DNA from: Candidatus Danuiimicrobium aquiferis
Lineage (GTDB): Bacteria; Omnitrophota; Omnitrophia; Omnitrophales; Danuiimicrobiaceae
Direction of reading: 5' to 3'
DNA: 64,000 bases
Assembly (NCBI GenBank): GCA_001804285.1
Contig: MHFR01000053.1
Location: forward strand, 15,857-79,856
The notes beneath the pieces were generated by a model. The model searched no databases and was not told the DNA's origin. It saw nothing but the letters and a program-made list of their open reading frames with translations. The position numbers were made by a program, and so were the translations under genes. This document shows positions 124 to 29,000 of this stretch, piece after piece (the first letter of the stretch is position 1; every line of letters begins with the position of its first letter).

Positions 124-1260
124 TCAAGTACCCGGTTCTGCTGCTTGCTGCTGGGTCACGCAGTGAATCGCACCGCCGCCGACGAGCAGCGCGCCCGACG
201 GGACACCCACTACGCGCCGCTTCGGGAAACATTCCCGCAAAATACCGAGCGCTCTCGAATCATTCGAGTCCCCGTAAACAGGAACCAGAACGACTTCGTT
301 TCCGATATAAAAATTGGCATACGACCCCGGGAGTCTTTTTTCACCAGCCATGATTTTTCGAGGCATCGGCAAGCGAATGAAATTGAGCATCCCCATATTT
401 CCGGCGCGGTTTTCTTCGAGAATCCTCCAATTCCGCCGGATCATGTCACAATTCACGTCTGTCCGGTCATCTTCGTCAATCATCACCAGGGTATTTTCAT
501 TCACAAACCTTGCTACATTGTCGATATGCCCGTCCGTATCGTCGCCGAACAACCCGCCGAGTAGCCAAATGAATTGCTCAATCCCCAAATGTTCTTTTAA
601 AATCCGCTCGAGTTCTTCGCGCTCCGTTCCGTAATTCCGGTTCATATTTAAAAGACATTGTTCCGTCGTGATGAGCAACCCTTTTCCGTTCACGTCAATC
701 GAGCCGCCTTCCAGAACAATTCTCGGCCGAAAACGCGGCATATAAAGATCGTCCGAAAGAATCTCGGGAATTTCATTATCGGCAAGCTGGCGATCATATT
801 TAAAACCCCACGCATTAAAAATCCAATCGCAATAAGCGGATTTGCCTTCGCCGTTCAGTAAAAAGGTCGGGCCATAATCCCGAATCCACGGACCAACGGT
901 TTCAATTTGGTGGAAGAAAATATTGCTGACAATATCATGCCTCTTCAATTTTTCCACCACTTCATCTTCTTCAGATTGATCATCCACCAAAAGGTGAACT
1001 TCTTCCGCCTGGTGAAGCTCCTGAATCATCTTGAGATAGATTTCTTCCACTTGAATGAGTAATTCATCCTGCCAGGTTTCGTGGTCATGCGGCCAGGCAA
1101 GCCACGTCGAAATGTGGGATTCCCACTCAGCCGGCATCCGGTAACCGAGCCTTTTAGGAGTTGACGTATTTTCGTATTCAGGTAATGACATAAAATTGAT
1201 GGTTTCTATTTTTTCAACATTCGTGCTTAAATGTCCAATGTCCAAATCCTCAATGACCAA
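124..1260 (-). CDS. aguA: agmatine deiminase (porphyromonas-type peptidylarginine/agmatine deiminase family)
   Basis: 378-aa ORF. It has the N-terminal motif MPAEWESH...WLAWPH typical of AguA, and a C-terminal GGGAIHCVTQQ carrying the catalytic Cys. TTG at 1260 has GGAG five nt upstream. An alternative ATG (MSLPEY) at 1191 gives a more typical N-terminal length. Confidence 0.8.
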   Translation of the reverse strand: MVIEDLDIGHLSTNVEKIETINFMSLPEYENTSTPKRLGYRMPAEWESHISTWLAWPHDHETWQDELLIQVEEIYLKMIQELHQAEEVHLLVDDQSEEDEVVEKLKRHDIVSNIFFHQIETVGPWIRDYGPTFLLNGEGKSAYCDWIFNAWGFKYDRQLADNEIPEILSDDLYMPRFRPRIVLEGGSIDVNGKGLLITTEQCLLNMNRNYGTEREELERILKEHLGIEQFIWLLGGLFGDDTDGHIDNVARFVNENTLVMIDEDDRTDVNCDMIRRNWRILEENRAGNMGMLNFIRLPMPRKIMAGEKRLPGSYANFYIGNEVVLVPVYGDSNDSRALGILRECFPKRRVVGVPSGALLVGGGAIHCVTQQQAAEPGT

Positions 1261-2050: not shown

Positions 2051-5000
2051 GACTGCGAGGACAGGTCGCGCGCTTCGGATGACATCATGGCTAAATCTTC
2101 TTCGCTGATTTTGTAATCAACCATTGTCACTTCTTTGATTGACTGAATGGCTTCGGCAAGGTCCGTCGCACGGGCGAGATTTTCTTCGGTAAACGGATCC
2201 GTAGAATCATTCATCCTGTTGATTTCACTCACAACCGCTTGCCGCAATATGGACAACGCTTCTTCGTAAGTCATTCCGGAATTTCTTAAAACTGCCAACG
2301 CTTTTGTAAAACCCGAAATGTCTGTTGCGTCCGGCGTGCGGAGGAAAACCCGGTCGATAATCTCGCTAAATTGAGTTCCGGGTTCCGAGTTTAAAGTTTC
2401 GAGTTTACCGAAAAAGGGGACAGGCAATCGCTCAACTTGAATCATATGCCTGTCCCCTTTTTGTTTGGAACCCGAAACTCGAGACCCGAAACTGTTTTCA
2501 TTGCGCACTTCCGATCTTCCTAAGTCATTATCCGACAACGGCTTAGCGCTCCATCCCAATTTCTGAAGCGCCGCCTCCGATTTTTCATCCTGAACCTTCC
2601 GGTACATCTCAACCAAACGGTCGGCGTTCGCCGGATTAAATTCAAGGAGCATCGCATTCCCTGCAGGACTCACATGAACATCCACCAATTCCCGGAGCCC
2701 GTCGAGCGGTTCATCGAATGTCGGAAGTGACATCACGTCCAGAATCCATTCAAGGCCTTTGACCAGGCTGAGAGGAGAAGGAAAAAGATTCCGGAAATTC
2801 TCGGAAGCTTGTTGAAATTGATCGAGAGGAATGTCATACAGCACAAAATGCGGCTGAAGTGAAAATTCAGGGAAGGCCCCAACCAAAGATTGATTCATGC
2901 TTTCAAGGCTTTGAAGCAATGCCTCCGGTGTCCGCAATTTCTTTCCTAATCCCCGGTAACGTTTCCCCACCAAAAATCCGTCGGGAGGAATCCGGCTGAC
3001 GAGTTTCGGCGCCCGGGCTTCGCGCAAAAGATCTTCCTTCACCAACTCAGCAAGTTTTTGAAGCACCCGGTTTCCGTTCTGATATCCAATGCCATCCTTT
3101 TTGCCGTCCCCGCTCTGAAGCCTATGATATGCGCGGCCGGCCGATTTCTTTTCTAAAATCGCGTGCTCCGCAAAATAATCCCGGACGGACAGCAACATGA
3201 GGTTGTTCATCCTTCCATGGGCTAAATGATGTTTAAACGTATCCATATCCAGCGTCTTCGTTAGGGGATCCGGGTGAGCGCGAAGCATCCCTTCTTCGGC
3301 CTGTTTCGCTAACTTTTTCTGTTCAAGCGCTTCTCTTAACTCAACCACTTTCTGACTGAAAGCCTCGGAGGATAACCGTTTGCCTTCGGGAACGATATTT
3401 CCGATCCATCCTATGGAAGAAAGGACATAATTTTGATTCCGGCCGTTTTGTTTTGCTTTTGAAAGCGCATCGTTCGCGAAGCGCAATCCCCATATATAGA
3501 ATTCATCCAGCCGGTCTTCGCGAAGCTTACCGGCCTCGTCGACCCAATAATTCGAACCGGAAAAGGGGACAGGCATATTACTCAAAAGAGAGCGATTGCC
3601 TGTCTCCTTTTCCATATCCGTCGTCTGCGTGACCAAATAATCAAGCACTTGCTTGGCGGAAACAGCGCCGAGAGAAATGGTGAGGATATTTTCAAACTCA
3701 ACTGCGAGCAACCGCCCGGACGGAAGTTTTAATTCGTTCATGAGTCGCGCAAGTTCGACGCGTTGAAAAAACGTGCTGTCAGGGGAAGATGTCATTCCCA
3801 CGGAAGTGGGAATCCAGCTGGATCCCCGCGTACGCGGGGATGACACTTCTGAGATTGCTTCGACAATATTCTGACCGCCATCTCGCAATGACACGCCGGG
3901 GCCTTGTTTCCTGACCAGCAAATTAAACCCATTTCCATGCCGGACCGCCGCGACGATATATTTCAATCCCATGGTTCGGATCATTTTCTGGAATTCCTGG
4001 ATGTCTTTTTCTTTGTAGCCTTTTAAATCAAGCCGGTAAATCGCATACCGGTTTTCAAATGCCTTTGTGTATAACCCGACCGGTTGAGAAACAAATTCAG
4101 ATCTTCCCATTTTGGGACCGGCAAACTCCAGCACCGCTTCGTCTCCGCCGACATAGCGATGGATCTGCCCTTGCATGACTTGATTCAGGATTTCCCGCGC
4201 TTCACGGTATAACGAGACATTCGCGATGATGACATCCGGCGACGGCTCGTTTCCAAGCGTTCCGAAAAAGCGTTTCCCGAGCGCATCATTCCGGGCACTT
4301 AATAGATCGGAATCGATCATTGAAAAATAAAATTGGTCAAGCGTACCGGCTTTTGCGTGCATTTTGAGTTTCTTAAGATGCTCGACTTCACCCTCCGCCT
4401 GTGATGTAAGCGGATCCGAGGATTCAGTGCGGACTTCAGCTCTGAATTGAGTTCCTAGTTCCGAGTTTAAAGTTTCGAGTTGATCTGTTTGTCCTAACCC
4501 GAAACTCGGAACTCGAAACTCTGAACTATTTTGCAGACGCACCTCTCCCCGTTTCCTTATTGGTTCTGTCACCCCACCATTGCGCATTCCCGGTGGAATA
4601 AACGCATCAACAACGCCGGCTTCCATGCCAATGTTCTGATAAAACCCGTGGTCCGGCTGAAGTGGAACGCGAAGCGTAACGACATTTTTCGGCGTCGCCG
4701 GCGCGAGATATCCTTCGTCCATTTCCCTGAAAAATAAATATTGCCAACCTGCCCCATTTTTCTGAACAAGCTTAAGAAAATTGGTTTCATTGGGATCAAC
4801 TGCTTGCAGTTCGCCTTGGGGATCCACCATGCCAAGCATTCTTAATGCCTCCCCGGCCAAAGCAAATTCAGGATAACGAAAGGATACCGGCGTCAGCATC
4901 CGATGCAAATCCCTCAGCGCTTCCACGGACCCCGCATACGCTTTCACGAAATTCATCACGCTCGGTTCGGCTGCTTCGCGCTTTTTTCCTCTTCCGTCCG

Positions 5001-8000: not shown

Positions 8001-11000
8001 CCGTGTACGTTCTCACCTTTTCGACCTGATCAATTTGGAGCCTTTTGGCCGGTTTCTTCTCTGCCTCTTTCGCTTGAAAGGCTTCAAGAATATCGGCTCC
8101 CCACAAAGGATACCGGGAATCCGCCTCTCTTGATTGCGTGAGCCATATGGCAGAAAAAGCTTGTTGAAGCACCCCTCCGGCATCGTGTCCCGGTTCAAGG
8201 AAAGATTTCGCAACGGAGTCCACCACGTAAGCATACATCCCGGAAAAATTCAATATAGGCGCCGGCGCACCGGTCAAAAGTTCGAGTTTCATTTGGCGCA
8301 AGACTTCGTCGGAAGGCCTCGATAATCCGGCCAAAGCTTCATGCAATTTAGGTAAAATTTCTTCTTTCGTCACAAAAATTTTCTTCGGGGCTTTGGCCAT
8401 CATCTCTTTCACAGAGACATACCTCCCTGCAAGAACGTCTTTATTCAAAGCACCGGCTCCTTCCATATTACGGGCTAAATTAATTTGTTGCGCTATCTCC
8501 TCCGCCGTTTTGTTCTCTAATTGATCGAATAGCTGTCCTTGCTCCGGCGTCAGGCTTTCACGGGGAATCATTAAATTCAATAATGCGGCTGCGTCTTTGG
8601 CCCGGTCCGACAAAAGTACCAGAGGGCCTTTCGAAACACTCGCACCGATGGTTTCAAAAAAGACATTAATGGAATCCCAGAAATCAAATTCAAATGCCGG
8701 CGAAGTGGCAAAATATTCACGGATAATACTTTGATCCGTTTGAAATTTTTCGATCACAATCGATACAAATGCCAGGAGCGCAATGGCATCCGCTTCCCAC
8801 CGTTCGAGCAGCGTCCGTTGATCGGGAGAAATCTGTCCTTCGCGAATTAACTTTTGCAGATTCCGCACCGTTTTTTCCATGGTTAGGAATATTTCAATGT
8901 TTCCTTCAAAGCCTCCGGCCTCATCGTTTCTGTTGAGCACTTCAAAGATCGATATTTCCTGTAAATTGGTCTCGGCGCGCAAAGACGGATCGGCAACAAT
9001 CCGGTCCATGTGAGCCGCATGCATGGCCATCGGCGAACCGGTTTCCTTTAATTCGTCGACGGACTCTGAAATGGCCGTTTCGATCGCACCGATCGCCTGC
9101 GTGGCTTGCGTTTTTAATGTTTCAAAATCATTCGTCTCGCGGCCCGCAACTAATTTTCCGATCATGGCTTTGGATTTTGTATCAAAATTCAGGATATCAT
9201 CTTCTAATGTAGCTATCCGCGCCGGATCTAACGTTAACAAAGGATGAACCCGGGACTGTATGACGCGAAGTTTCGCATCCAAACTTGTTTTCGCTGCGGC
9301 AACACGATCTTGCAATTCGCGAGTCAGTTTGCGATTGAACTTCTGGGAAACCACTTGGGCGCGCTGGCTTTCAAATTCCCGCGCTTTGTCTTCCGACACA
9401 ATCCACTGCTCCGAAATATTTTTGCTCTTGTCGCCGATCGCTTCATTTAATTTCGCGACAAATTGAACCTTGGCGTCCCGGCTTAATAATCCCATAACAC
9501 CCACCGGCAGGTTCTCCATACGGACTCTTCCGCCTTCAATATCAGCTGCCAATTCTTTAATCCACGCAAGATGATCAATCCCTTTGCTGCGTTCTTTTGC
9601 GGCTTGCGCAGCAGTCCGGAAGCGTTCGGGAAACTTCGTAAACGTATTCGCATTTGCCGCCACCAACGTGATTTCAGAAACTTGTCCAAAATACGGAATC
9701 TCGACCGGCTGCTTGAACCGGAGCATGATCCGCTTCAGCCAGTATTGTTCGTTTTCAAGCACGACTTCAATATTTCCGAAATCCGTTTGCCTGCGAAGCG
9801 CCGCGGGGACAGTTTGATTGGTATTCAATCCGGGAATTATTTCCAAGCCCAGATTAAAGGCCTGATTAATTTCATTCCACCACACAAGCTGCTCGGCCGA
9901 CCGGACGGGAATCCGAAGGACCGACCGGGGATTTCCTTGCGAACCGGCTGCGGATCTCAACTGTTCGGGAAGCGTGACCAAAAGTTTGTCAAAAGCTTCG
10001 TCCTTGGACGTGATCGAATCAAGCTCCATTACCCGGATGTTGTCAAAAGAAAACCATTCAAGAAAAATTTTGATGAACCGGTCCGCATCGTGATGGAAAA
10101 AACCCGCCTCTTTGATGAATGATAAAACACCAAAAAGTGTACGACCGATTTCCCCTTCGCTGTGCGAATCAATCCATGAGTCCGTAAACATTTTCCGCAC
10201 CATTTCAATCAATAAATCACGTCCGGCATAGTCACGGGAGATATGTTGATCGAGGAAACGGTTCAGGTCTTCCGTGAAAAGTTTTGCGTTAAATTCCATT
10301 TGCTGGAAAGCGGCGTCCATCCCGCTCTGAGCGGAGCCGGGCAATGCGAGCGCGATGGTCCGTAAACTTCTTGCGATATAAGGAACCAAATCAGGTTGCG
10401 CCTTGGCCAGCGCCATGAGCTCATCGAAAGAGGCCCGGACTTCGCTGCGCTGTTCTTCCCGAATTTTTTCGGCAAGTTGATCGACCTTTTCTAAACCATT
10501 ACGATTCTTCGGCGAAGCCAATAAATTAATCGCGGCCTGGTCCAGCTCATCACCGGCCGAAATTAATATGTGTTTTAATTTTTTCGTAAGCCGGTCCACC
10601 TTTTCTCCGCTTAAAAACCATAAAACGTCGACAGCCGTTCGAATGCCCGAAGCAGGCTCCCCGGACGCGGCGAACCGGCTTAATCTTTCCTGGATTGTTT
10701 TTTCAATTGAATCCCGAAATCCGGAAAAACCTTTTTCACTGTAGATCGATCTCAGAAAAATAAGTTCGGCTGCTATCGGCGAACCATCTTCATTCTGCTC
10801 AATCGCTTTTCGAACGTCCCGAATCACTACGATGCCAACCCCGGCGCTGAGCGGTTCGAGCACTTCGTCAACATACCGGTGGACCGTTTCTTCTTCGGTA
10901 AAAAGATGCGCAAAAACCCTCACTTCTTCAAAAAGTTTCCGGACCTGCTCGAATGAAATGTCCGGCTTAGCCGCAAGATCATGAACATACCGGTACATCT

Positions 11001-14000: not shown

Positions 14001-17000
14001 CAATCAGCGTGACCGGTTGTGCGGGATCGAAAAGGTCGGGATGTAATTCTTTGAGCAATGTATATTTAATAATGGCTTGCCCGATATCCGCAATGTCCGA
14101 ACCCAGCTTTGCGTCATAAATTCCCCGGTTCCATATATAGTCGGGAGCGCGATATTCCGACAAAAGCGGGTCGGACGCCACAAATCCGTCATAATCAAAG
14201 CGGCCCTGGCTCACGTGATGAAAAACAAGCGCAACCAATCGTTCGAACACATCTCCCTTCAGCTGCGCGTAATCCTTGGGTTTCCGCTCCGCCGTGCTTG
14301 CGGTTCGCTTCGCCGGCGTGTCTTTCTCCGTTGTGGTCGACGCAATCGCCATACTCCACTCTTCGGGTTGTTCCGAAAGCTTACCCATTTTGCGAATGAC
14401 GATCGCTCCGACAGAATCCGCATTCTTTTTCACTTCCGAAACAGATAGGTTCTGGGCCACGGCCGGCGAATCTTCGCCGAGCAGCGCGGAACCATTTCGC
14501 GGGACATAGATCTGTAAACCAAAACTATTCGTATCGGCATCGTAAAACGGAACAAGGTAATATTCGAGATGCCTGTATTTTGCTAAACCCGAAAACCGGA
14601 CAGGAGAAATAGATTCTTCCTCACCTCTTTGAATTTTCAACACATAAGCCACATCCTCCAACCCTCGCTGATTGACGGTCACGGCCATTTCCGGCTGCGC
14701 AGAACGGATTCCCGCTAACCATTCTTTATACTCTTGGGGCAAATAGCCTTGAGACATGTCTAATGCATAAGTTTTCTTGACCGGTTTCGGCCGTGCGGCT
14801 GGCTTCGCGCTCTTTTCAATAATACCCTTCCCCCATTCGGCCATCAGCCGCGGAAGTCCCATCCCGAGGTGTTCGGCTATAAATTGAAGCGTCTCCATCG
14901 CCCCTGTAAACATACTACGTAATTCATCGGTGCTCGGTTCGTTTGCTAAGGGTTCGGGTTCAAGCCGGACTTCTTCCAAAACCGCTTCTTCGGGCGCCGA
15001 GACAACCAGCCCCAGCCCTTGCTCCAAAAATTCGCGCGTTGCCGCTTCCGTTTGAACCGGATAAGTGCCGAGGAATTTTCCGCCGGAAATTAAATTTGTT
15101 TTGTCGGGAGTTCTTCGAATAGCTTGTGCAATGGATTGCAATTTTTCATGATCTTTCAGCGTTGTCTCATTCTTTTTTTCGCTGACCGACAGGATATAAA
15201 TATGTTTGCTGCCGGGCGAAACATAATACACAACGCGAAGGAATCCCTTCGTTCCGCTCCCCAATGGAAAATCTCGAAGTGGATTTAAGTCCGCAAACTT
15301 CGGCGTCTCGCTGCTTCGTCCTTCGAGCAATGTCACCAATTTGGCCCGAATGTCAGGCCCGTAGGCTTGTGCCCGCGCCGTTAATTCGCGAAACGCCTGG
15401 TCCGTCAGAACAAGGCTCCGGTCCGTTTCAATCCTCACCCGGAGCGGGGAAATTTCAAGAAGCTTGATGTGTCCCTTCCGCAATTGACCGTTTGCGCGTA
15501 AATGTTCCAATCCCGGAGGTAAGTCGTCAAAATGGCGCGTACGGATTTCGAACCGGTCATTTCTGAAATCGTTTTCCAAAGGCCCGGCTGCCCGTTCGAA
15601 AGCCGCCGTTAAACTGTGCTCCGTCAATTCAGGACTTACCTGGATCACCCGGACATTCCGGTTGTGCCTTAAAAGTAAACGCATGGCCGATGAAATATTT
15701 TCCGGCAAATTTTGCCAGGCACCGGTTCCGACGCTATATTTTGTACTCGTCAAATAAACGGTTTGACTACCCTGATTTTTTTCCCGGATAAAATGAACCA
15801 GCGGTACCGTGGCAGTACGGGCTTCGGACCTGAATTGAGTTCCGAGTTCCGAGTTTAAAGTTCCGAGTTTACCGAAAAAGGGGACAGGCATATGACTCAA
15901 GTTGAGCGATTGCCTGTCCCCTTTTTGTTTGCTGTCATTCCCGCGGAAGCGGGAATCCAGCTGGATCCCCGTTTGCACGGGGATGACACCCTTGTTAGCT
16001 TTAAAGTTGCGAACTTCCGCCCGACCGGCACCCCCCAAACGTTGGGCACGATCAAACACACCCACGTTATGTTTTGCCCATCGCCTGATTTCAGGATCCG
16101 TCGAATTTAAAAACGTTTCCGAGTCCCAAATATTAATCAAAATGTCCTGCGCACGCGAAATCCCGACATTCCGGCGTTTCTTCCCGTCCACCGGGTCCGC
16201 CAGAAATCCGACCGATCCGCCCTTGTTTGAACGGACCCACGATAAAATGACTGCTTTGTATTCCGATCCGATCGACGAATCAACGGTGATCACTTTAAAA
16301 GCGCCGCTTGACACATCCGCCGAAGGAACAAATGAATTCCCAAGGTCAAGATCACGGAGAAATTGCGTAGCCATTTCCTTGGTCGGCTGTGCGATAAAGC
16401 GCCGGACATCCGCATCAAATAATTTCATTTCTTCCTGAATTATTTTTTCCCGCTCGGGATAAGCTTTTTGACGAAAAGTCGGATCTTCACGGCTGAACTC
16501 CTGGAAAAGATTTTCATGCATCCGGAAACGGACAAATTCTGATTGGAATATCAAATTCAACGCAGCGGCAGATTCTGCGGAAATCGCCGGCGGTCCTTGC
16601 GCAGAAATAACAGATGAAAACGCTTCATGAATTTTCGAAAAATGAAGCAACGCATCCGAAATCATGTCAACCTGCCTCTGATAAGGCGAAATGACGGCAA
16701 TGTCCTTCGCCGCGACACCCTGTCGATTGATAAGCCGGTTCACCCAGCTCACAGCTAAGTTAATTTCGCCGCGGTTAAAGCGGCCCATTTCATCCACTTG
16801 CCCGGTCTTCTCTTCCCGGTAAATTCCTCTTGTATCTTCTTCAATGACGGTACCGTCGACATCACGCCCGGCAATTAATTTCCCATGATAAAAATAATTA
16901 ATGAGATCCACGATCAAACGGCCGGACCGGCGTTGAATATCGAAAAAATAAAAGGGCGGCTGCGTCACGCGAAAAACTTCCGCATCCCGGGTGAAAAATA

Positions 17001-20000: not shown

Positions 20001-23000
20001 GGTAAGCCATAATCAAAAATTCAACACTGCGGATATATTGCCCGGAAGAACCTTCTTTGATTTTTTCCGGTTTTTCCGCAATCGGAATCATTAATTTAAC
20101 GAATGTTCCAAATTCCTCCAAATCCCAAGCCAGCCCGGCCACTTGCATTAAATCCTGAGCATCGTTTTCAGAAAGAACAAAATCAAGAGAACGATTTAGA
20201 AATTCCGTTAACGCGCGTCTCCCCTCCTCATCCGACTGGAGCTTTGCATAGAACAACCCAAGCGAAATATAAGGCAGTGAATCTATCAAATCCCGGAAAG
20301 GCACTTTATTTTTTGCAGGCAGCCAATCTGGTTTTTTTTCTACAAGTTCTTTGACCCGGCTAAACCAATGATCCAAATATTGAGCGCTCTCCTTTGTTTT
20401 TCCCGTCATCATCGCACCCATGGAAGCCATCGCCGTCATTTGAAAGAAAGAATCATTTTTCAAAAAAACTTTTCGCGCTGAACTTACATCTTCTGTTTTT
20501 CCGCTCCCTGTTGCTTTTTTAACTAATTCGGCTGCTTTCCTCTGGTATTCCTGATGCAATCCTTCCACCGATTGCCAATCGCCCGCATCAGTAAAAACCT
20601 TGGTTAATTTCATCAATAGTTGCAGACTTTGTGCATCCGCAGAAAATATTTTAATTTTTTTAAGCAATGTTCCCCGTTCAGCTGCAATAAATTCTCTGAG
20701 TCCCTCGACCATCCGAACCTGCAACCAATTGAGCCGTCCGGATATTTCGAGAAAAGAGTCCAAAGCAACCACCCCCATTAAATAGAAAACCGGATGCATA
20801 TGAGTTGCCCCCATCATCTCGCTCATCTTCTGTTCCAGGCTGCTAATTTGTGAAAAAAACACTTTGGCGTCATAATCCGCCCGAATAAATTCTCCGGTGA
20901 GCCACTCCGTAAACTTAATTTGCCGGCGCTCGTGAAGCCTCATCGTTGAGATGGGCCCGGCAATAATTGAATCGTGGTACATGTCGTCATAGCTGACTGT
21001 CCTGGACGCAATTTCTTTGGCTTTCGCCTGAAGCCGCGCATACGTAACTTTGTTTTTTGCGACTCCCATCATTCGGTGAATCCGCCTCAAAGCACTCAAC
21101 CTGTTTTCGTCTTCTTCACCCGCTAAAAGAAATTCCAATTTTTCCCAGTCTTCCTCGCTCATGGTTTTTTGATTCAAGACCTCCCATGTCTGATTCATCA
21201 AATCACTCATTTCAATGTCTGTATACCGGTTAGCAAATTTATACAAGGCGAGGAATACAGATTTTTCTTTCGGCCATTCGTTCAACTTCCCCAAAATGGC
21301 TGACACCAAATCAGAAATCTCATCGCCGTGCCCGGACCGGTTGAGTAACGCAAGTTGATTCAAATGAACCTGCTGATCAATCTCCGGAAGCCGCAGCAAG
21401 ACTTCCAAAAACAATTTAAATATCTGATGCGCCTGTTCGTGACTCCCTGTAAGTTGATATAGACGCGCCAAATCAAACAGGACATACATCAGGAAAATAT
21501 TTTCTTTGGTGTTTCGATATTTTTCTGCAAGTGCGCTTAAAATATTGATCGCTTTCTGATACTCTTTCTGATACAGGGAAAGAGACGCGAAGAAATAAAA
21601 CCGCCAATCCAACGGGTCTGTGTCGCCCAAATCGTCCGTCAGCATTCGGAAAGCCAAAACATCTTCACGAACAATATCCGTTGCCTTGGCAAAAAATGAA
21701 ACCGCGCTTTGGTCCGCCGTATCCTCGTTTAGCAGCTTTGTCGCCAACATCCGCAAAGCCGCAAAATGAATCGTTTTGACGATCGGAAGACTATTTTTTT
21801 CTCCCACTAGCGGAGTCGTGATCTCAATCGTTTTGACCAACTCTTCATCACCGGCCAGCAATAAAAATACTGCCTTCTCAGATAGCAATCTTTCCTGAAT
21901 TAATTTTTTAGATTCCTTATCTTTTCGAAAAAATGATGACCGCTCCACTAAAACCAGGGCTTGATCAAGCCATTTTATTGTTTGGGTGATTTCATCGCTT
22001 TGAAGCGGCAGATTAAATTTTCGCAAGACTTCCGCAAAATCAAGGGTGGCAAAAGCGCGCCGCTCTTCCAGGAAGTCAGGCTCTCCAAGCAACATTTCAA
22101 GTTCCACCCGCATTTTATCGTACCGTTTAAGGTCCCTGAAAATATCCACCAGCAGCAAACGCCGGCCGATCAACAATTGAGGCTGATTCTGAAATACAAT
22201 CAAGGTTTCATACGTCATATGAATGAGCTCTTCATAATTTCCCTGAATCCTTAAAATAGCCTCGGCCATATAGTAATAAAGAGGCAGTTCCCTGCTGATA
22301 ATATTTTCCTGCGAAGAGAGTCTCACTCTAGGGTCATGCATCTTTCCAAGTGCAAGACGGGCCGGTTTTATTCGCTTTTTCAATTCATCGAGAATCAGAT
22401 TGAACTTGGGCTCAACATCGGCGAAATGAATATCGGGCTGATCGAGTCTGAACTGATGAGCCAGTTTAAGCCGCTTTAAGTCTTCTACAAGTTTCTGAAT
22501 CAAAGCGTCACTGGGGATTTTATCTTGTTGATATTTTTGCAAGGCCACCAAAAAAGAACCCGCGTCCACTGGTTCGGATGCGCGGGCTTCGGACCTCAAT
22601 TGAGTTTCGAGTTTACCGAAAAAGGGGACAGGCAATCGCTCAACTTGAGTCATATGCCTGTCCCCTTTTTGTTTGTCATTCCCGCGGAAGCGGGAATCCA
22701 GCTGGATCCCCGTTTGCACGGGGATGACACCCTTGTTAGCTTTAAAATTGCGCATTTCCGATCTTCCCGGAGCTCCGAGATATTTAAAGATAGAAGAAAT
22801 TTGATCTTTGAGATGATTGACTCGCCCGTTTTCCACAGATCCCTCAAGTTCTGTTACCGCAACGATTACTTTTCGAAGACCGCTCTGCAACCGTTGATAA
22901 TAACGCTCACGGATTTCCGTAGAAAAATAAACGCGTTGAATTTCCGCAAGCCGTGAACGGAACGACTCCAATCCCAGGGGAAGAATTTGAACCAGTGGCG

Positions 23001-26000
23001 TTGTTTTCAAATAATCTCTCAACCCGCCAAGCGCTTGGCGGACAAGCTCATCCCGGTATAACGTATAAATGTTGACCCGGTCTTGTTCAATTCTTGACCG
23101 GATTCTCAAAATCTCATCGATCCGGATTTCAATATACCGTTGCGCGGTTTCGATCGACGTTCTTGCGCCTTCCATATGTCCTTCGCTCAGCATCGTTAAC
23201 GATTGCTGTAAACTGTCCCCGGGTAGCGGGAGCACTTTCCCGCCGGCATCTCTATCGTGAACGGGAGTTTCCCGCCCTCCCAATCCTTTTTTGCCATCCA
23301 AAACTTTACGAATGTCTTGCCGGATCATTTCTGTGATAGTCGGTTCAACTCGTCCTCGTTGAAGAAATGCGGCATACCTTTTCATATTTTCAAGTGCTTC
23401 ACCCAAAATCTGGTGTTGTCCGAAAAACATCCCGAAATCTTCATGGTAATCCCGTAAAATATCATTCCGGCTCCGCAACGCTTCTTCCAAATTATCATAA
23501 TGAATGCCGGTTAAAACGCTTTCGCGTGACGTTCCGCCTCCGGCGACCGGTACATTTTTCCAAACATGCTGCCAAATAATAATTTTGCCGTCCGGAAGGA
23601 TTTCGATCCGTTCAACTGTTTTTTCCCTCGGCGAAAAATTTTTGTTCCGCCATTTGTATTCATAAGAAATGTCTTCGTAGGTTTTGATGATCTGATCGAA
23701 AAGATCGATAATTGAAGCCTGCTTCGGAATCGGAACCAATAATTTTTTTCGAAGCAACAATAATTGTGCTTTTAATTTCCGTTTCAGCCATCGGACGTTT
23801 TTCTTGCTCAATCCGTCGATTTCCAAAAGATTACCGATTTCTTCGGGAAGTTTAAATTGAGAGTTGATATTTGCCAAGATCGGATCGAACTCCGCGATTT
23901 TTGCTTGCAAAGCAACCGCATCATCAACCAAATTGCCCAACTCCTTTAGCGGTTCTATTTCTTCCGGAATATCAGGAATGATCTGGCGGATATTGATGTC
24001 TAATTCGGAAATAATTTCCGCCATGTCGGCAGCAAAGGCCCTTTGAAGTAACACCCGGCTCGATGAATCGGGATGATCTGCCCTTGCACTATTCCATTGG
24101 TGTAATAAGGCCAAAACTTTCCGCCGGCGCCTGTAAAATTTAATAATATTACCATCCGTCACTGCTTCCGCCGCCTTTGCTGATTTCACCGCGGCGCGGG
24201 CTTCAGCCCTCGATACATGTCTCTTGGAACGTATCGAGGACACTTGCGCGCTTTGACCAATGTCTGCTTTGGTACTATTTATATTGTTGCGCGCTTCGGA
24301 GCGCGTCCCCTGTGTCATTCCCACGGAAGTGGGAATCCAGCTGGATCCCCGCGTATCCGCCACTAAAGCGTTGGCGGATCCGACCGCATTGTTTGGCGGA
24401 CGCGGGGATGACAATCCTTGGGCTGTTCCATCGCCTCCGGTCGCTCGCAATAACGTGCCAATTCCGCGGACTTCGGATCGTTGTGCACCTTTCACCCGCT
24501 CGTGGAGACGGAGAAGCGTCTCGCGATTGAAAGAAATGACATCTTCAAGCCGTTCGCCAGCTAAAATTTTCTTTTCGATTTCTCCGCGGAAAGAATCTTC
24601 GATTCCGCCGAACTCATCGTCCGGCATGTGTTTGTAAATCACATCATAAATTACCATTTCAAGCTCGACGAGCTGCTTCACATATTGTTTCCGCATCCGG
24701 TTATTTTGAGTCTCATCCCTGCCAAACAAAATCGTCCGTCCATCTAATGCGTTTAACGTGTCGCGAACATTGCGCAATCGTTTTCGCAACCGTTGATAAC
24801 CCGGATCTTCAAACTGCGGCGGGAAACGGTTCCGCAACTGATCGATTTCTTTGACGGTTTCTGAAATCTTCGCGCCGTCAAGTAGCACCTGCACGGGTTT
24901 CCGGACCACATCCCGCACTTCCATCGTTTTCAGGGCGATGTATTTCGAAATCCTGATATTTTCATCCACATAATTTTCAATATGAAAACGGGCCCAGCGA
25001 ATCGCACGAGCGAGCACCTTGTCGTCCGTAAACAAAAACGCGAGCTCCGCCCCGACCATGTCATCAATCACGATCCTTCTCGAAGGTTTTTTGCCGCGAG
25101 ACGCCCATTCCAGCACATTCGCCAAATTGTCACGGATGTGTTTCCGGGCTTTCTGCCTTGCGTCCGTCACGCCCGGAATATCTTTGTCGAGTTGGCCTTT
25201 TTGAAGTTCTTTTAAACGGCCCAGGGCATCGTCCAAGTATCCCAACATATCGTAAGCCGCCATGTTCGCTTCCGCATAACTCCAAAGCGTGTGATCAAAT
25301 GCGCGCAAAAGATCAAAAACATTATGATACTCGGCCCCGATAAGATCAGCGGAAACGGTATCAATATCGGCTCTTCCATATTGATTAAAATTCGCTTCAA
25401 TATTTTCTTGCTCTTTTTCATCATCCGCTTTCGATAAAAGAAATTCCTCAATATCATCAAAAATAACGCCATGAAGTCCGTTCTCTTCGATGACCCCGCT
25501 TGTGAACACTTGAACGACAGCATCTACCGAAACCTCGCTGGCTTTGCCTTTGATTTTTCCGCCTTCCTCACGAATCCGCGAAACCACGAAATCCTTAAAT
25601 CCCGGCAATTCCCAATATGGCTGAATCAATTTCTCGACGGAATTTTTTAAATAAGCCCGCTGCCGCCGGTAACCGATCCGCTCGACCACCAGCACATCCC
25701 CTTTGAATAATTTCCGGATTTTCGCTTTCACATCCCCGCGAATTTCACCCGTCGCCGAATCAAGAAGTTCTGAACGGACCTCCTCCGTGCCGAGCACGCT
25801 GCGGAAGAACTCCTTACTTAAAAGATAATTCCCGATACTCCATCCCTTGATGTCTTCTTGTGTCATATAGCGAATGACTTCCCGCCGGCCGGCTTGCCTG
25901 ACGCGTTTCCACAAGAATTCGCGCTTGAGTGCGTTCATGTGATAACGTAGCTGGCGGAAACGTGAGAATAACACTCCGAGCTTCGGCGAATCCGCCGTCA

Positions 26001-29000
26001 GATCTCCCTGATTCATTAACTGATCCATCCACGCCGGGTGAAGTTCCATTAATAGAAGCCGGCTGAGCACGTCCATCGCTGCCTGGTTCAGGCGTTTCAT
26101 CCGTTCCGCTTTCGTATCGTCTCCCACATGTTTGGAAAGCCGCCTGACAATGTCTTCGTATTTTTCAGAATACCGTTTGATTTTTTCTCTTAAGACGCTC
26201 ACGCTCGTGATCTGCTCAATCCCCCGAATGGTCCGAATGGACAAAAAGTTGAAATTTTCTTTTGTAAAATCTTCGCGCAATGTTGCGAATTGGCCGACAA
26301 GCCGGACACGGTTTCTTTCGATCTGTTGAAGCTTGGTTTGATCGGGACGTTTCTGAGATGCCTCCTCCTGATACTCTTTCCGGTTGTAATAATATCCGCG
26401 TGCGACGACACTCAACCGGTGAATCAGCGTCCCTTCTCTTTCACGTCCTGCTTGCGGGCGGGCCGGCTCCTCCATGAAATCTCCTTCTTGTCCCAAAATC
26501 CGTTCCTCTCGCAAAGGCTTGCTGCGAACCATCATCGGCGTTCGCTCGGCGGCGGCTTGCCGGTCAACACGATTGAAATAAATGAAAGAACTTGTGATGT
26601 CGGAAAGAAACGTGGCGTCGGAGGAAACTGTTTTGGCGAGTGCAATCCTTGACTTGCCGGCCGCTTGCTGTTCATAAAGAACCGCTATTTTTTTAATTTG
26701 CTCGTTGATCGTTCTGTTTCTTCGAATCCCGTTTTGTCGAAGAACGTCCCGAAGGTAATCGGTCACGGCAAGGCGAATGAGGAGCGAGGCAATCAATCTG
26801 GTTTTTTGGGCGTCTTTTAGTTTTAAAGTTTCTAGATATTCGTAAAATTTATTCAGAATGACGAAGCGTCCTTCATCATCGATCCACGCCAGTTGACTCA
26901 AATCCGTATCCGCATCAAAATAATTCTGGTAAGCGCCGGCCGGAATATTTACTACAATCACGCCTTTCGCATCGATTTTCTTTTTCAAATGATCCAGGAT
27001 TTTTTGCTTGAATGGCCCGCGGACCGTTTCGCTTAACACCGCGCGCGCTTCCGGATTTAATTTCGACGACAACCGCTGCGGCAAGTTTGAAACCCCTCGC
27101 ATGCGTCTCGCGGCTTTCAGCGCTCCGGCTAAAGTCTCTTGAGTTAATTCTTCAAAATTGTTTGCGGCTTCAATTAATTGCGTTCTTTTCTCGCGCAATG
27201 CCTGCTGTTGGTTACGAACTTCGGCCCTGGGTTGAGTTTCGAGTTGATCTCTTTTTCCTAACTCGAAACTCGGAACTCGGGCCTCGGAACTGTTTTTCAG
27301 GCGCGCTTCGCTTCGCGGGACGGCAATCGCCGAATTCACCTGCATCTTCTTCGTCACGTTCGAAAATGCCATGTAATTGCCGATCTTCCCCGGAGGCGTA
27401 TGATTCGGAACCGCAATCCGATGTTCCTTGCCATCTGCGTTAAACGTTACCCTGTATCCTTTTCCGTCCAAAAGCCACGAACTACCCTGTTTGATTTCAA
27501 AGGAAAATGAAACGAGACCGCCGGCGTCGCTTTGAACCGTCAAAACCACTTTTTCATATTGATCAAAATCCGGAAGATATGGCGACAGCCATCCCCCGGC
27601 CCAATTGCTTTCCGCATTCATCGGAATTAATTCGATTCCGGCACCCTCCGAAAGCTGAGCGGCATTCAAATTCCCGTCACCGTGCATCACGGTATAATTG
27701 TTTAATAATTGAGTCCCCGTGCCCGCGGGAACTTCCGGCGCTTCGGGTGCAACCGGGGGCTCTTCCGGCATTTCACCCGGAGGCACCTCAGGTAAGAACA
27801 GCAAATCCGGCAAACCGGGGACTAACTTCGCGCACGCGCCAACAAATCCGGCTAAACCGAAATAAGCAGCGGTCTTTATTAAAAAAGTCCGGCGGGTAGT
27901 ATGTTTAATGTCGCGCATCTTCGGAAGAGACCTCAATGTCTCATCCGAAGAAGTGCTTGCCGCAACCGGCGGCAAGCGCGCTTCGGATCTGCTGGGGCTA
28001 ACAATTTCTTCAGCCGTCAGATTCCTAAGCTCATCATGGTCATACGAATGAAGTGGTTGATACATATTGCCTGGCGCAACTTGAACGCTGCCAGTCCGCT
28101 CAATCCAGCGGCTCGCGTGAATCAAACTATTCCACAAAGCCATTTCAACGCCGTTGAAAATATAGGCTCCCCTCTCTTTTGCTTGAATGAGAAGCGACGT
28201 TGCAAGTGGCATCCGAACCATATCAATCACATACATTCCCTCTGATATCCCGTTCAAGTCTGAAAACGGAAGCTCTTTTCCAGATGCGTTGATCAAAACA
28301 TCAGCATCCGCAAGCAAACGATAAAACTGCTCCTCATTTCCTGTAGCTGCGGTCATGCGGATTCCGGGATAACGTTCCCTCAAAGTTTGTGCGAATGCCT
28401 CTGCCTGCTCCAAATTCTCTTTGGTTTCAACAAGTCCCAAACTACTGACACCTTCCGCCGCTAACGCTTCCCCCGTTTCCCGCCCTGCGCCTCCAGCGCC
28501 ACCCAACAGGAGAATTTTTTTTCCTTTAAATCCGCCCACTGCATCTCCATACGCATTGATAAAAGCAATACCATCGATTGCATCACCCAGCAACCGCCCA
28601 TTTGATTGTTTAGTAACATGATTGACCGCTCTCACCATTCGAGCTCGCTCAGTTTGCTCGTCAAGATATTTCCCAATCGTTCGCTTCCAGGGCTGTGTCG
28701 CAACCGCGCCTATCACACGAGGATGGCTTCTCACTATATCAATTAATTCCTTGAGTTCTGTTTCACTTTTAACTGCATATGAAATCCTAAGCATATCAAG
28801 CGGAGTTTGGCCCGTGACTTGCGGATAAATTTGCCGGAAGATGTACTCATATTTTTTGTTTGCATTTGTTTTCATCACGTTCGCTTCGTCGCCGATAAAT
28901 AATGCAACTTTTGTATCTTTCGTATACGCCAGTCCGTGTTCTTTCGCGGAAGCTTCCAACCGTTTCTCAAATTCAGCTATTGATATTGTGTCCCTCGCTT

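Follow-up and report, generated by a model that had tools for sequence, protein, structure and literature searches.

The window, by which we mean the whole 64-kb stretch of DNA analyzed here, from an uncultivated Omnitrophota bacterium, carries three giant open reading frames (ORFs) on its minus strand, the closest homologues of which are annotated as Candidatus Omnitrophica/Omnitrophota. Two copies of a composite palindromic element, the subject of this study, lie inside the longest of them. The ORFs and the conserved module at the start of the first are as follows.

1495-40848, minus strand: giant ORF G1, 13,117 aa, host of both composite copies
41304-55607, minus strand: giant ORF G2, 4,767 aa, with a G1-like architecture and 11 junction motifs
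55765-63996, minus strand: giant ORF G3, at least 2,743 aa, with 8 junction motifs
38092-40848, minus strand: conserved N-terminal module of G1, termed F0, with a TIKI/TraB/erythromycin-esterase-like fold (paralogue in G2 at 52797-55607)

Domains recognized in the giant ORFs comprise methyltransferase, SF1 helicase, and shikimate-dehydrogenase-like types. In an independent scaffold, L189, G1 is 100% identical save for two local insertions, which split the ORF there. A PAD_porph/agmatine-deiminase gene lies downstream; no homologue of it was found in the loci of relatives, which cover the 5' side only.

Protein-sized modules within the giant ORFs are separated by a junction motif, R-[SA]-E-[AVM]-R, which occurs 45 times in the three ORFs against 0.26 occurrences expected. 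Its density in giant ORFs is 1.79 per 1,000 aa, compared to 0.057 in neighboring ORFs. Gaps between motifs mostly span 90-1,000 aa, with a peak at 150-600. In the window, the first arginine is encoded 19 times by AGR and 26 times by CGN, and serine by TCN as well as AGC; due to these mixed codons, we rejected the idea that the motif is purely a DNA-level repeat in this window. The synonymous sites of the junction motif are strongly constrained in relatives. Translational bypassing of the spacers between paired motifs was likewise rejected: every spacer is open and in frame, so ribosomes read through. A search for Shine-Dalgarno sequences before internal Met codons following the junctions gave nothing convincing.

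The giant proteins form a family with 8,632 cluster representatives at 50% identity. Each related giant ORF begins with a conserved F0-type module of TIKI/TraB protease-like fold, continues with variable modules split by lineage-specific junction motifs, and family members share a conserved -AA C-terminus. The dominant motif variants differ between lineages, and in four distant members the motif is replaced by [AS]S[LM]G. Variants in the family include RAEVR, RSELR, RAETR, RQEMR, and ASLGK. In phylum and size class, our ORFs match the Omnitrophota giant genes of two preprints (West-Roberts et al. 2023, 10.1101/2023.11.21.568195; 10.64898/2026.06.07.730766), whose available text also reports methyltransferase and SF1 helicase domains, several hydrophobic segments, and a suspected cleavage into multiple products, as encountered here. 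The C39/S8 peptidase, dockerin, and SecA domains stressed in the available parts of both preprints were not found in the ORFs of this locus, and in those parts we found no mention of the junction motif or of translated palindromic repeats, nor did a conserved N-terminal module of TIKI-like type come up in them.

An earlier note on this DNA had described 15817-16025 and 22580-22768 as two near-identical, nested composites translated in the same frame. Sequence reading and alignment confirm this observation: the two regions are one cassette in two copies, each built of a long hairpin B, a terminator-like hairpin A lodged in the loop of B, and next to it the double hairpin C, which is REP-like. 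Their parts are given below, within each copy in the order of translation.

16009-16023, minus strand: RAEVR (CGG GCG GAA GTT CGC), which opens the spacer of copy 1
15989-16008, minus strand: degenerate outer B arm of copy 1, translated as NFKANKG (compare N-L-E-N-S-S in the outer arms of intact B)
15933-15988, no strand assigned: family C REP-like double hairpin of copy 1, translated as VIPVQTGIQLDSRFRGND
15875-15926, no strand assigned: hairpin A of copy 1, with arms 15875-15890 and 15911-15926 and loop 15891-15910, TATGACTCAAGTTGAGCGAT
15832-15869, no strand assigned: B arm of copy 1, with an 18-bp GAGTTCC-type expansion, translated as KLGTLNSELGTQF
15817-15831, minus strand: RSEAR (AGG TCC GAA GCC CGT), which closes the spacer of copy 1
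22750-22764, minus strand: RSEMR, which opens the spacer of copy 2
22674-22729, no strand assigned: family C double hairpin of copy 2, without any difference from copy 1
22619-22670, no strand assigned: hairpin A of copy 2, with loop 22635-22654, the exact reverse complement of the copy 1 loop
22597-22613, no strand assigned: short B arm of copy 2, translated as KLETQL
22582-22596, minus strand: RSEAR (AGG TCC GAA GCC CGC), which closes the spacer of copy 2

Self-BLAST aligned 15859-16019 with 22603-22760 (91.4% identity, 162 bp, E = 1e-55), and in the MAFFT alignment the homology spans 15817/22582 to approximately 16023/22764, where it ends at the outer junction motifs. In either copy, the edges of the cassette are exactly two in-frame R-[SA]-E-[AVM]-R motifs, and both copies are read in the common frame of the single stop-free G1. 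Apart from a few substitutions, the copies differ by the 18-bp tandem expansion, a 3-bp indel, and the inversion of the A loop; both indels are divisible by three and the inversion is length-neutral, so each difference preserves the frame. The flanking B arms of the earlier note hold for one side: each copy retains a single full arm (15832-15869; 22597-22613), while the opposite side is reduced to a degenerate remnant of about 20 nt. That note captured the composite pair but missed the giant ORF around it, the junction motif, and the intergenic, terminator-like occurrences of A and C.

The same note had proposed a search for target-site duplications at the element borders, and in the window none was convincing. 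The 15-nt motif copies flanking the cassettes were considered as such and rejected, as only about 9 of 15 positions are identical; since the same motif stands at approximately 30 element-free sites and in relatives without B, the flanking motifs are not target-site duplications. A short direct repeat, TTTAAAGTT, is present on either side of A+C in copy 1 only.

Hairpin A has perfect 16-nt arms, AAAAAGGGGACAGGCA / TGCCTGTCCCCTTTTT, and a 20-nt loop. By self-BLAST, 15875-15926 matches 22670-22619 at 100% over 52 nt, and exclusively in inverted orientation, whereas the loops read directly in register have only 4 of 20 bases in common. This establishes a precise inversion rather than divergence, as the earlier note had held. 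The constellation agrees with that of an inverted-repeat spacer inversion, namely perfect 16-nt arms, 52 of 52 positions identical when inverted, and flanks that are 91-100% identical in direct orientation. A third member of the same A subfamily (2411-2462), oriented as in copy 2, is enclosed by an intact B hairpin; the junctions ACCG and GTTTG, one per side, are common to all three members. The pattern GGGGACAGGC-N(5-30)-GCCTGTCCCC matches six times in the window, compared to 0.00 times in shuffles, and the orientation relative to the gene is balanced, 3 to 3. With its form A5-GGGGACAGGC..GCCTGTCCCC-T5, a GC-rich stem followed by a T tract, the anatomy of A resembles that of SPRITE elements and intrinsic terminators.

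Mis-assembly at repeats could in principle have produced the loop orientation or the duplicated cassette. The public scaffold version indeed contains two local insertions relative to the window, elsewhere in the gene; contigs of a conspecific end at repeat clusters; and a short read-derived protein, P0127, diverges directly past C. We nevertheless consider an artefact highly improbable: the cassettes are identical in the window and in L189, protein P0001 (run SRR3989338) has the copy 1 loop in the same orientation as the window, the read length exceeds the 52-nt hairpin, and each cassette has unique flanks. The data on orientation represent one genome version, L189 being the same sequence and P0001 deviating from the translated window in only a few residues.

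An exact inversion between inverted repeats is also the signature of invertible switches, and either orientation is open in frame, such that phase variation might alternate the linker peptide between ...GDRHMTQVERLPVPFF... and ...GDRQSLNLSHMPVPFF.... A programmed switch of this kind is very doubtful all the same. The 20-nt segment and its 16-nt arms fall far under the size range of known invertases, no recombinase domain was found in the ORFs of the window, and the peptide lies in a linker without conserved sequence. Moreover, P0001, the sole other assembly-derived sequence over copy 1, shows the same orientation.

All three palindrome families recur in the window, as compiled here.

2369-2500, no strand assigned: intact B hairpin with A (2411-2462, copy 2 orientation) in its loop
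4445-4527, no strand assigned: B hairpin without passenger (other B-only elements at 27219-27290, 32055-32130, 48838-48906)
24313-24420, no strand assigned: C element with another hairpin in its second loop (C-only elements at 3790-3846, 57509-57560)
40554-40610, no strand assigned: hairpin A as in-frame insertion in the N-terminal module of G1, missing from 7 homologues
3556-3612, 34253-34302, 39859-39910, 40008-40064, 56828-56880, 59685-59744, 60987-61031, 62213-62262: further A copies within ORFs
1424-1473, no strand assigned: A-like hairpin in intergenic terminator position just 3' of the G1 stop
59-108, no strand assigned: second A-like intergenic hairpin, after the deiminase gene

Copy numbers in the 64 kb amount to at least 12 for A within ORFs, 7 for B, and 5 for C. 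All in-ORF copies lie in the stop-free giant ORFs and keep the frame of their host. B was examined for the terminal inverted repeats and target-site duplication of a MITE: its long inverted arms have the ends CCTG...CAGG, and the flanking motif copies are, as described above, not target-site duplications. C consists of two GC-rich imperfect palindromes, each 20-25 nt long; most copies are intragenic, and one C-like double hairpin lies between ordinary genes elsewhere in this genome. The two A-like hairpins located 22 to 70 nt past the stops of G1 and the deiminase gene are predicted terminators; for a repeat of this type, it is the copies within ORFs that are unusual. The nesting that the earlier note had reported is real beyond the two cassettes: A lies in the loop of the intact B, and another hairpin occupies the second loop of the C element at 24313-24420.

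That palindromes were inserted into a pre-existing coding sequence is evident from alignments of the N-terminal module. Here, A and other palindromes are in-frame insertions peculiar to G1, which neither G2 nor 6 Omnitrophota homologues contain. The inserts in F0 correspond to the low-pLDDT segments 73-95, 273-328, and 497-518 of the model, while other copies are located in inter-module linkers. In other species, the same low-confidence loops of the N-terminal module hold different hairpin families.

Alternatively, the opposite loops could stem from two independent insertions of A, as a mobile terminator- or REP-like element, into the same B-loop site of two pre-existing B+C cassettes, in opposite orientations and without any flip. 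As the arms are perfect palindromes, the sequence does not separate insertion in either orientation from a flip of the core. Hairpins of the A family are spread across the ORFs in both orientations with diverged loops, some copies are demonstrably inserted relative to homologues, and loops repeatedly host other hairpins, A within B and a different one within C; pneumococcal repeats, too, insert into each other (PMC10969869). Still, independent insertion calls for two events at the same nucleotide with the same junctions, by 52-nt copies that do not differ. The cassette around A is just as closely matched, for which one duplication followed by one flip is the simpler account. The remaining A copies show neither target-site duplications nor a conserved target, and no RAYT or transposase gene was found in the window or 8.5 kb beyond (72 kb examined). 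Parsimony favors the flip, with the whole cassette and not A alone duplicated, and we regard independent insertion as unlikely.

In the window, 20 perfect hairpins were counted compared to 0.55 in shuffles, and 11 of them are no more than 85 nt away from a junction motif (P = 2.5e-6). Related genomes show no such enrichment, with 3 of 28 in-ORF hairpins near junction motifs; thus, the association with linkers may be specific to the B family and this lineage. For the suggestion of the earlier note that the elements preferentially target one another's hairpins, these data leave the co-location standing but weaken the targeting: with 11 of 20 hairpins near motifs and different families in the same loops, survivorship in tolerant places explains the pattern equally well.

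Hairpins near junctions raise the question whether they are selected structures, for instance attenuators or terminators, RNase processing sites, or ribosome pause sites kept between modules. Along this line, A is built like a bidirectional intrinsic terminator, A-like copies follow stop codons, and the hairpins are enriched at junctions. The composites fold far better than shuffles (z = -8.3 and -6.6), although palindromes score high in folding automatically. The constraint on synonymous sites of the motif in relatives also fits. Against this, spacers are short and lack such hairpins in relatives that share the junction motifs, the same families occur in arbitrary permissive loops of the N-terminal module, neither sequence nor orientation of the loop is conserved, and the hairpins gave no Rfam match at gathering thresholds. 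A scan for consensus terminators yielded counts no higher than in shuffles, but it considers loops of at most 8 nt and is blind to A. Taken together, it is rather improbable that the hairpins are selected structures.

C is read in two frames, VIPxxxGIQLD..FRGND or SSWIPTSVGMT; its translation VIPAKAGIQ / LDSRFRGND is of a type that we take to be seen as spurious ORFs in many bacteria. The 5' arm of A is translated in two frames in the window, KGTG or KGDR, and in a third, KRGQ, in the homologous hairpin of a relative (L130). With two or more frames and both orientations in use, the cassette-encoded peptides appear to be incidental. However, the 3' arm of A yields P-V-P-F or a close variant in 12 of 12 in-ORF copies, which argues that some selection or frame-preserving copying acts and that incidental translation is not the whole story.

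The generic A stem was found at more than 120 loci in unrelated phyla among the matches listed by a scan of a genome collection, and hence the stem is widespread; the junction motif was absent from all of these listed loci, and the genome of the window itself was not among the listed matches. The specific A-loop subfamily had no match in a metagenome scan, and a protein search with the spacer peptide returned one fragment only.

We therefore come to the reading that we hold to be probable: both composites are copies of a translated linker cassette in an Omnitrophota giant gene, duplicated as a whole, with the A loop flipped later in one of them. The cassette is built from palindromic repeats of a normally intergenic kind. 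The outer arms of B abut the motifs, A sits in the B loop, and C has replaced most of the other B arm; the ends of the element and the unit of duplication are presumably those given above. Linkers and some surface loops are probably the sole tolerant places in a 39-kb ORF, so that repeats would accumulate there, with extra DNA tolerated only while open and in frame. The cassette may then have been copied as a unit to a second junction, either by mobilization of B together with the elements it carries or through gene conversion. The 20-nt A loop of one copy may later have been inverted by a template switch or by recombination at the perfect 16-nt arms, a length-neutral change that keeps the frame. 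This order of events, the mechanism of the flip, and the neutrality of the peptides are what we infer from the present-day sequences.

Each ingredient of this reading is known singly, namely from Rickettsia RPEs, pneumococcal nesting, and spacer inversion, while the combination and its setting are new. Minute inversions of hairpin loops in plastid DNA are a similar case. Spacer inversion between inverted repeats by template switching involves two strand switches during replication, takes place in coding DNA, prefers long perfect arms, and is reversible (PMC8604942). The hairpin described here is alike in having arms of at least 10 nt, an exact reverse complement of the spacer, unchanged flanks, and a location in coding DNA; the documented inversions, including the yeast coding cases, concern spacers of 2-5 nt (PMC8604942), whereas ours measures 20 nt and its mechanism would be deduced by analogy. 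The hairpin also offers a clean natural case of 20-nt inverted-repeat spacer inversion in coding DNA.

In-frame palindromic elements and the nesting of BOX, RUP, and SPRITE are on record (PMC10969869). According to that source, the RPEs of Rickettsia (Ogata et al. 2000) are likewise small in-frame palindromic repeats that leave genes open and add peptide segments at tolerated positions. RPE families have a conserved peptide in a fixed frame, whereas here one DNA family is read in several frames and orientations. Further differences to the RPEs are the giant-ORF hosts in Omnitrophota, the many copies in motif-bounded linkers, and the nesting of at least three families. In the same source, the pneumococcal BOX, RUP, and SPRITE repeats (Croucher et al. 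2011) also comprise several families clustered and inserted in one another, and SPRITE, a rho-independent-terminator-like hairpin, is comparable to hairpin A; these repeats are mainly intergenic there, while the clusters here are translated within a continuous ORF. C is a candidate for the RAYT-mobilized REP/BIME elements, whose palindrome anatomy it fits, but here the copies are mostly intragenic and the 72 kb contain no RAYT gene.

If the gene is tens of kilobases long, intergenic-type hairpins, terminator-like as well as REP-like, can colonize its interior at scale, and selection then permits only frame-preserving change, that is, indels in threes and length-neutral loop flips. This extends the notion of selfish DNA in coding genes, developed for Rickettsia, to another phylum and to nested clusters of multiple families. 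The context may matter even more: the giant proteins whose linkers these repeats mark belong to a very large family. West-Roberts et al. explicitly left it open (10.1101/2023.11.21.568195) whether Omnitrophota giant proteins persist as one chain or are cleaved, and the junction motif provides a concrete, testable site for this question.

F0 has the characteristic alpha/beta fold of the TIKI/TraB/erythromycin-esterase superfamily. Across the F0 sequences, H107, E135, H567, and H529 are invariant, and E113 is found in 28 of 29. The catalytic set of the superfamily consists of two His and two Glu, with catalytic residues described in Bcr135 and RRSP (PMC6254334); by conservation, H107, E113, E135, and H567 of F0 are candidate catalytic residues. 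The combination of F0 with modules split by motifs suggests bacterial polyproteins with putative cleavage sites. A more far-reaching, tentative reading joins this to the cassettes: the giant ORFs would be polyproteins, an operon written as one frame, in which the motif is cut and the B element has adapted to being clipped out. We consider it possible but on the unlikely side. F0 or a partner enzyme would cut at R-x-E-x-R in most lineages, or at [AS]-S-[LM]-G-K in some, and free protein-sized modules, several of which would expose a signal peptide at the new N-terminus or within about 30 residues of it. The terminal AGG of B would at the same time be the first codon of the second junction motif; with the motif codon supplied by B, the element and its passengers A and C would come to be bracketed by two putative cleavage sites, and their translation product would be clipped out of the polyprotein. 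If true, selfish DNA would be rendered harmless at the protein level in a manner functionally akin to inteins, but dependent on a host protease.

Viral polyproteins and MARTX toxins with CPD-processed effectors are alike in combining many modules per ORF, short lineage-specific boundary motifs, and one conserved protease-like module. Different from these, the candidate protease has a TIKI/TraB fold, cleavage is putative, and the modules include ordinary cytoplasmic enzymes as well as lipoprotein-type signal peptides.

The two cassettes, i.e., the composite repeats joining hairpins A, B and C, lie in one giant minus-strand ORF, G1. Self-BLAST aligns 15859-16019 with 22603-22760 at 91.4% identity (162 bp, E = 1e-55), and according to MAFFT the homology extends from ~15817/22582 to ~16023/22764, with none beyond. 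Hairpin A, with perfect 16-nt arms AAAAAGGGGACAGGCA / TGCCTGTCCCCTTTTT and a 20-nt loop, is identical between the copies (15875-15926 and 22670-22619, 100% over 52 nt in self-BLAST) solely when inverted. Read directly and in register, the two loops have 4 of 20 bases in common, so that the difference is a precise inversion rather than divergence. The stem pattern of A occurs six times in the window versus 0.00 times in shuffles. Other differences between the copies are a tandem expansion of 18 bp in a GAGTTCC-type repeat, one 3-bp indel and a small number of substitutions, and every length change is a multiple of three. The observation made in the earlier note, two homologous regions with an exactly inverted loop, is confirmed; its interpretation is partly supported, in that inversion and nesting hold.

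Giant ORFs and repeat elements of the window
1495-40848, minus strand: giant ORF G1, 13,117 codons, hosting both cassettes
41304-55607, minus strand: giant ORF G2, 4,767 aa, upstream of G1
55765-63996, minus strand: giant ORF G3, at least 2,743 aa, upstream of G1
2411-2462: hairpin A in the loop of an intact B (2369-2500), junctions ACCG and GTTTG
4445-4527, 27219-27290, 32055-32130: intact B copies without passenger
48838-48906: fourth B-only copy, 5' arm degenerate
24313-24420: C copy with another hairpin in its second loop
1424-1473: A-like hairpin just past the G1 stop codon
59-108: A-like hairpin just past the stop codon of the downstream deiminase gene

The three families were defined by side-by-side reading of all copies. 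Family B is a long hairpin of GAGTTCC-type heptamers, reading N-(L/E)-(E/N)-N-S-S-E-F-R-V-P-S-F-E-L-G...Q-L-E-T-(L-N-S-E-L-G-T)-Q-F in coding orientation, and its outer arms adjoin junction motifs, short peptides found between modules. Family C consists of two imperfect palindromes rich in GC, GTCATTCCCGCGGAAGCGGGAATCC and its partner; translations of this type (VIPAKAGIQ / LDSRFRGND) are well known from spurious ORFs across many bacteria. Both cassettes are ordered as B arm, ACCG-A-GTTTG, C, and ~20 nt of degenerate outer B arm (NFKANKG). Given these shared arms, junctions and order, the most economical history would begin with a B element alone, whose loop was entered by A; C would then have arrived beside A while one B arm was largely lost, before the whole cassette was duplicated and, last, the A loop inverted in one copy. 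Nesting is borne out beyond the cassettes by A in the B loop at 2369-2500 and the hairpin in C at 24313-24420. That the elements preferentially target one another's hairpins, as had been proposed, was not demonstrated.

The earlier note rightly held that insertion in either orientation and flipping of the core are inseparable by inspection, the arms being perfect palindromes: re-insertion of the whole hairpin A in the other orientation, with no flip, yields the same sequence. Re-insertion, however, needs two insertions at an identical site, as compared to one duplication and one inversion. Moreover, what the loci have in common is the entire cassette rather than A by itself, all three subfamily copies of A have the same junctions, and 52 nt are identical. 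On these grounds, a flip of the loop is the probable event. Inversion of inverted-repeat spacers by replication template switching is known in coding DNA, is favoured by long arms and is reversible; reported inverted spacers measure 2-5 nt, compared with which the 20-nt loop of A stands at the long end (PMC8604942). ORF searches of the window found no recombinase gene nearby. One other assembly-derived sequence covers copy 1 and has the same orientation as the window. A short read-derived product, P0127 (SRR3989338_386191; window ~15930-16400), consists of a helicase end, RAEVR, NFKANKG and C, and diverges where hairpin A should begin (...RGNDSKQKKRKKKNQTSLYTFSLL); it may represent an allele lacking A or the chimeric end of a contig.

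Hairpins of these kinds are also found between genes. The A-like hairpins after the two stop codons have the anatomy of a bidirectional intrinsic terminator, and the ordinary genes of the 8.5 kb past the window include a C-like double hairpin in one of the gaps between them (37020-37076 of L189, a public scaffold of the same sequence). Perfect hairpins with stems of 11 or more and loops of up to 45 number 20 inside the giant ORFs, versus 0.55 in shuffles; in this window 11 of the 20 are within 85 nt of a junction motif (11% expected, P = 2.5e-6). We aligned the N-terminal module of G1 to its G2 paralogue (39% identity) and to six Omnitrophota homologues. Hairpin A at 40554-40610 and at 40008-40064 and a GEGRGEG-type palindrome at 38723-38767 appear as in-frame segments specific to G1, and these gaps in the paralogue and the homologues show the hairpins directly as insertions. 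As judged from the alignment and from the copies between genes, intergenic-type repeats have invaded coding DNA. The inserted segments are at pLDDT below 50 in the AlphaFold model. A related locus, L130, carries a C-like double hairpin at the exact position of hairpin A in G1, CGAAGCAATCT...AGATTGCTTCG hairpins occur in five other loci at sites matching G1 insertions, and other species have other hairpin families at the same positions.

The peptides encoded by the hairpins do not appear to be conserved as such. C is read in two frames, the 5' arm of A in two frames here and in three when the homologous hairpin of L130 is counted, and the orientation of hairpin A relative to the gene is 3 to 3. 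The 3' arm of A, however, reads P-V-P-F or a close variant in 12/12 in-ORF copies (frame CCT GTC CCC TTT in canonical copies) and also in L130. All three frames of A are open, yet the P-V-P-F frame is used (e.g., 2411-2462, 3556-3612, 40008-40064, 56828-56880), i.e., frame usage is non-random, which suggests that only benign readings of A survive.

The junction motif R-[SA]-E-[AVTM]-R occurs at 45 sites in the 20,627 aa encoded at 1495-63996 (minus strand), with 0.26 expected from composition. It cuts the ORFs into modules, mostly of 150-900 aa, and 13 short spacers of 14-65 aa. The ranges in which the cassettes had been noticed, 15817-16025 and 22580-22768, correspond to two motif-bounded spacers, motifs included.

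Junction motifs and internal signal peptides
38092-38106, 29812-29826, 48066-48080, minus strand: examples of the motif
16009-16023 (RAEVR) and 15817-15831 (RSEAR): motifs bracketing copy 1
22750-22764 (RSEMR) and 22582-22596 (RSEAR): motifs bracketing copy 2
34040-34080 (G1 aa 2257-2280), 27850-27975 (aa 4292-4335), 45690-45791 (G2 aa 3273-3312): internal signal peptides

In this window conservation of the motif is at the peptide level: its first Arg is encoded by AGR 19 times and by CGN 26 times, its Ser by TCN 20 times and by AGC four times, and third positions vary. Several modules begin with segments resembling signal peptides, located at the motif or no more than ~30 residues from it (RAEAR|NAFPTRRRFFKIAAVFAGLGVSGC, RSEAR|QTGVGGQTRMKQPGPKGLRGIGFAMLSAVAAILPLAAGC), and one methyltransferase module has a Met directly after it. 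Signal peptides in mid-ORF suggest that the modules are exported proteins in their own right, or were so until recently. Those inside the giant ORFs, again at or within ~30 residues of a motif, are of twin-arginine or lipoprotein type with lipoboxes. Term searches of the accessible text of Omnitrophota giant-gene preprints did not retrieve the motif.

Motifs closing a short spacer start with AGR in 11/12 cases, the other motifs with CGN in 23/31 (Fisher P = 0.0013, this window). The closing AGG pairs at the very ends of the B palindrome (CCTG...CAGG), so the B element may itself contribute part of the closing motif. The motif is also present at ~30 element-free sites. A search for target-site duplications at the element borders revealed none that was convincing; the bracketing 15-nt motif-coding sequences are ~9/15 identical.

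With the N-terminal module as query, a profile-guided scan of metagenome contigs revealed 65 loci. Where these are on long contigs, the module stands almost always at the head of an ORF that extends past the 10-kb flank, i.e., spans 4,000 aa or more. The giant ORFs contain 1.79 motifs per 1,000 aa versus 0.057 in neighbouring ORFs, gaps between motifs are mostly 150-600 aa, and hydrophobic segments within 50 aa after a motif number 19 versus 8.3 ± 2.8 at random positions (~2x). Modules other than the N-terminal one are almost never homologous between genomes. The architecture, as far as sequence comparison reveals it, is one conserved head with an array of variable protein-sized units. In these relatives (loci L124-L188) the motif is constrained at synonymous sites, with consensus CGY-KCY-GAR-NNG-CGG: AGR makes up 3% of first Arg codons versus 29% in the background, and codon 4 ends in G in 72-87% of cases for Ala, Thr and Val (for Leu, CTG makes up 40%) even though its amino acid varies. 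Of 148 matches to the DNA pattern, 147 lie inside giant ORFs on the coding strand in frame 0 and one on the opposite strand; two were found in 370 kb outside. Candidate causes are concerted evolution by recombination at junctions and codon-specific translation effects; each relative genome prefers its own 15-mer, which indicates concerted evolution.

Among 1.84 billion cluster representatives, HMMER assigned 8,632 to the N-terminal module family, including 4,116 at E ≤ 1e-30; top matches measure 2,000-7,800 aa with the module at the N-terminus. Of 20 long members, 16 contain 9-22 R-x-E-x-R motifs with a lineage-specific main variant (RAEVR ×17, RSELR ×13, RAETR ×8, RQEMR ×5), and four (P0187, P0188, P0189, P0209) have 5-15 [AS]-S-[LM]-G-x instead (e.g., ASLGK, ASMGK), apparently at module boundaries. 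This suggests that the junction motif differs between lineages. C-terminal -AA or -SA was seen in 19/20 long members and likewise in G1 (1498-1530), G2 (41307-41340) and G3 (55768-55800), e.g., ..TGSAA, ..LAKAA, ..MKRAA. The C-terminal modules of G2 and G3 are homologous (28% identity, 346 aa). In two stand-alone homologues, P0121 and P0126, the C-terminus lies 33-46 aa past a motif.

Pfam and PDB sequence searches of the N-terminal module gave nothing significant, with a weak TraB_PrgY_gumN match at a GGFH motif (E = 0.099). H107, E135, H529 and H567 are invariant in 29 family members, and E113 is present in 28/29. This set resembles the 2His/2Glu set of the TIKI/TraB/erythromycin-esterase superfamily, which includes sequence-specific endopeptidases (PMC6254334). 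These data would fit polyproteins with a cis-encoded predicted protease: the head would cut at the lineage-specific motif of the module boundaries. In favour are the conserved protease-fold head, the short lineage-specific motifs that mark each module boundary, the signal peptides located on or just past some of these motifs, and the motif near the C-terminus of stand-alone homologues. The element peptide would then be bracketed by two putative cleavage sites. The full chain, from polyprotein through element-supplied closing motif to bracketed element peptide, is rather improbable in our estimate. Omnitrophota are known for giant genes, the cleavage of whose products is left open by West-Roberts et al. 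(10.1101/2023.11.21.568195); the nearest protein relatives here are annotated as Candidatus Omnitrophica/Omnitrophota.

In-frame palindromic elements as in the cassettes are of a kind known from Rickettsia, nesting of small repeats is known from pneumococcus (PMC10969869), and the loop flip resembles known inverted-repeat spacer inversion. As each ingredient is of a known kind, the finding counts as a variant of these and not as a separate kind; the setting is unusual and informative, and the giant genes add to the interest of the repeats.

ORF length is assembly-dependent while the two cassettes are not. L189 (ANAN16-1...scaffold_951) matches window 1-30273 at 100% identity, two local insertions aside: one of 28 nt (L189 9957-9984, window ~20319) and one of ~114 nt flanked by a duplication (L189 21972-22053, window ~8334-8365). 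Because of them the giant ORF of the scaffold is broken into products of 6,248 and 6,307 aa. The window seems to be a corrected version.

The gene directly downstream of G1 (124-1260, minus strand) encodes a PAD_porph deiminase (Pfam E = 8e-107), under the NCBIfam agmatine-deiminase cutoffs. In Porphyromonas, this family modifies C-terminal arginines bared by Arg-specific proteolysis. No deiminase homologue was found in the relatives' loci, of which the 5' side was covered, and the link to the giant ORFs may be coincidental.

A further repeat family of ~60-100 bp (77-86% identical; 2014-2077, 35045-35111, 50458-50554, 52696-52807) reads ...DLSSQVRPG.../...ARDLSLQPRQRPEVAAE and adjoins a closing junction motif at 3/4 sites, 2014-2077 having a degenerate motif-like sequence only. 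Hairpins with stem GGGGACAGGC/GCCTGTCCCC and flanking A/T tracts were found at at least 120 loci of a genome collection in very different phyla, among the matches listed Geobacter relatives, Desulfotomaculum, Aminicenantes, Myxococcaceae, Clostridia and others; many of the listed loci have the extended stem GGGGACAGGCTACTTTTT...AAAAAGTAGCCTGTCCCC in common, with ~10 matches expected by chance. Finally, the 1.4-kb metagenome contig L125 is 99.2% identical to the G2 5' region and departs from G2 within a cluster of small palindromes in a variable loop of the N-terminal module (window 54620-54711 versus L125 1150-1427), with extra nested palindromic elements; this difference could be a population-level polymorphism or an assembly break.
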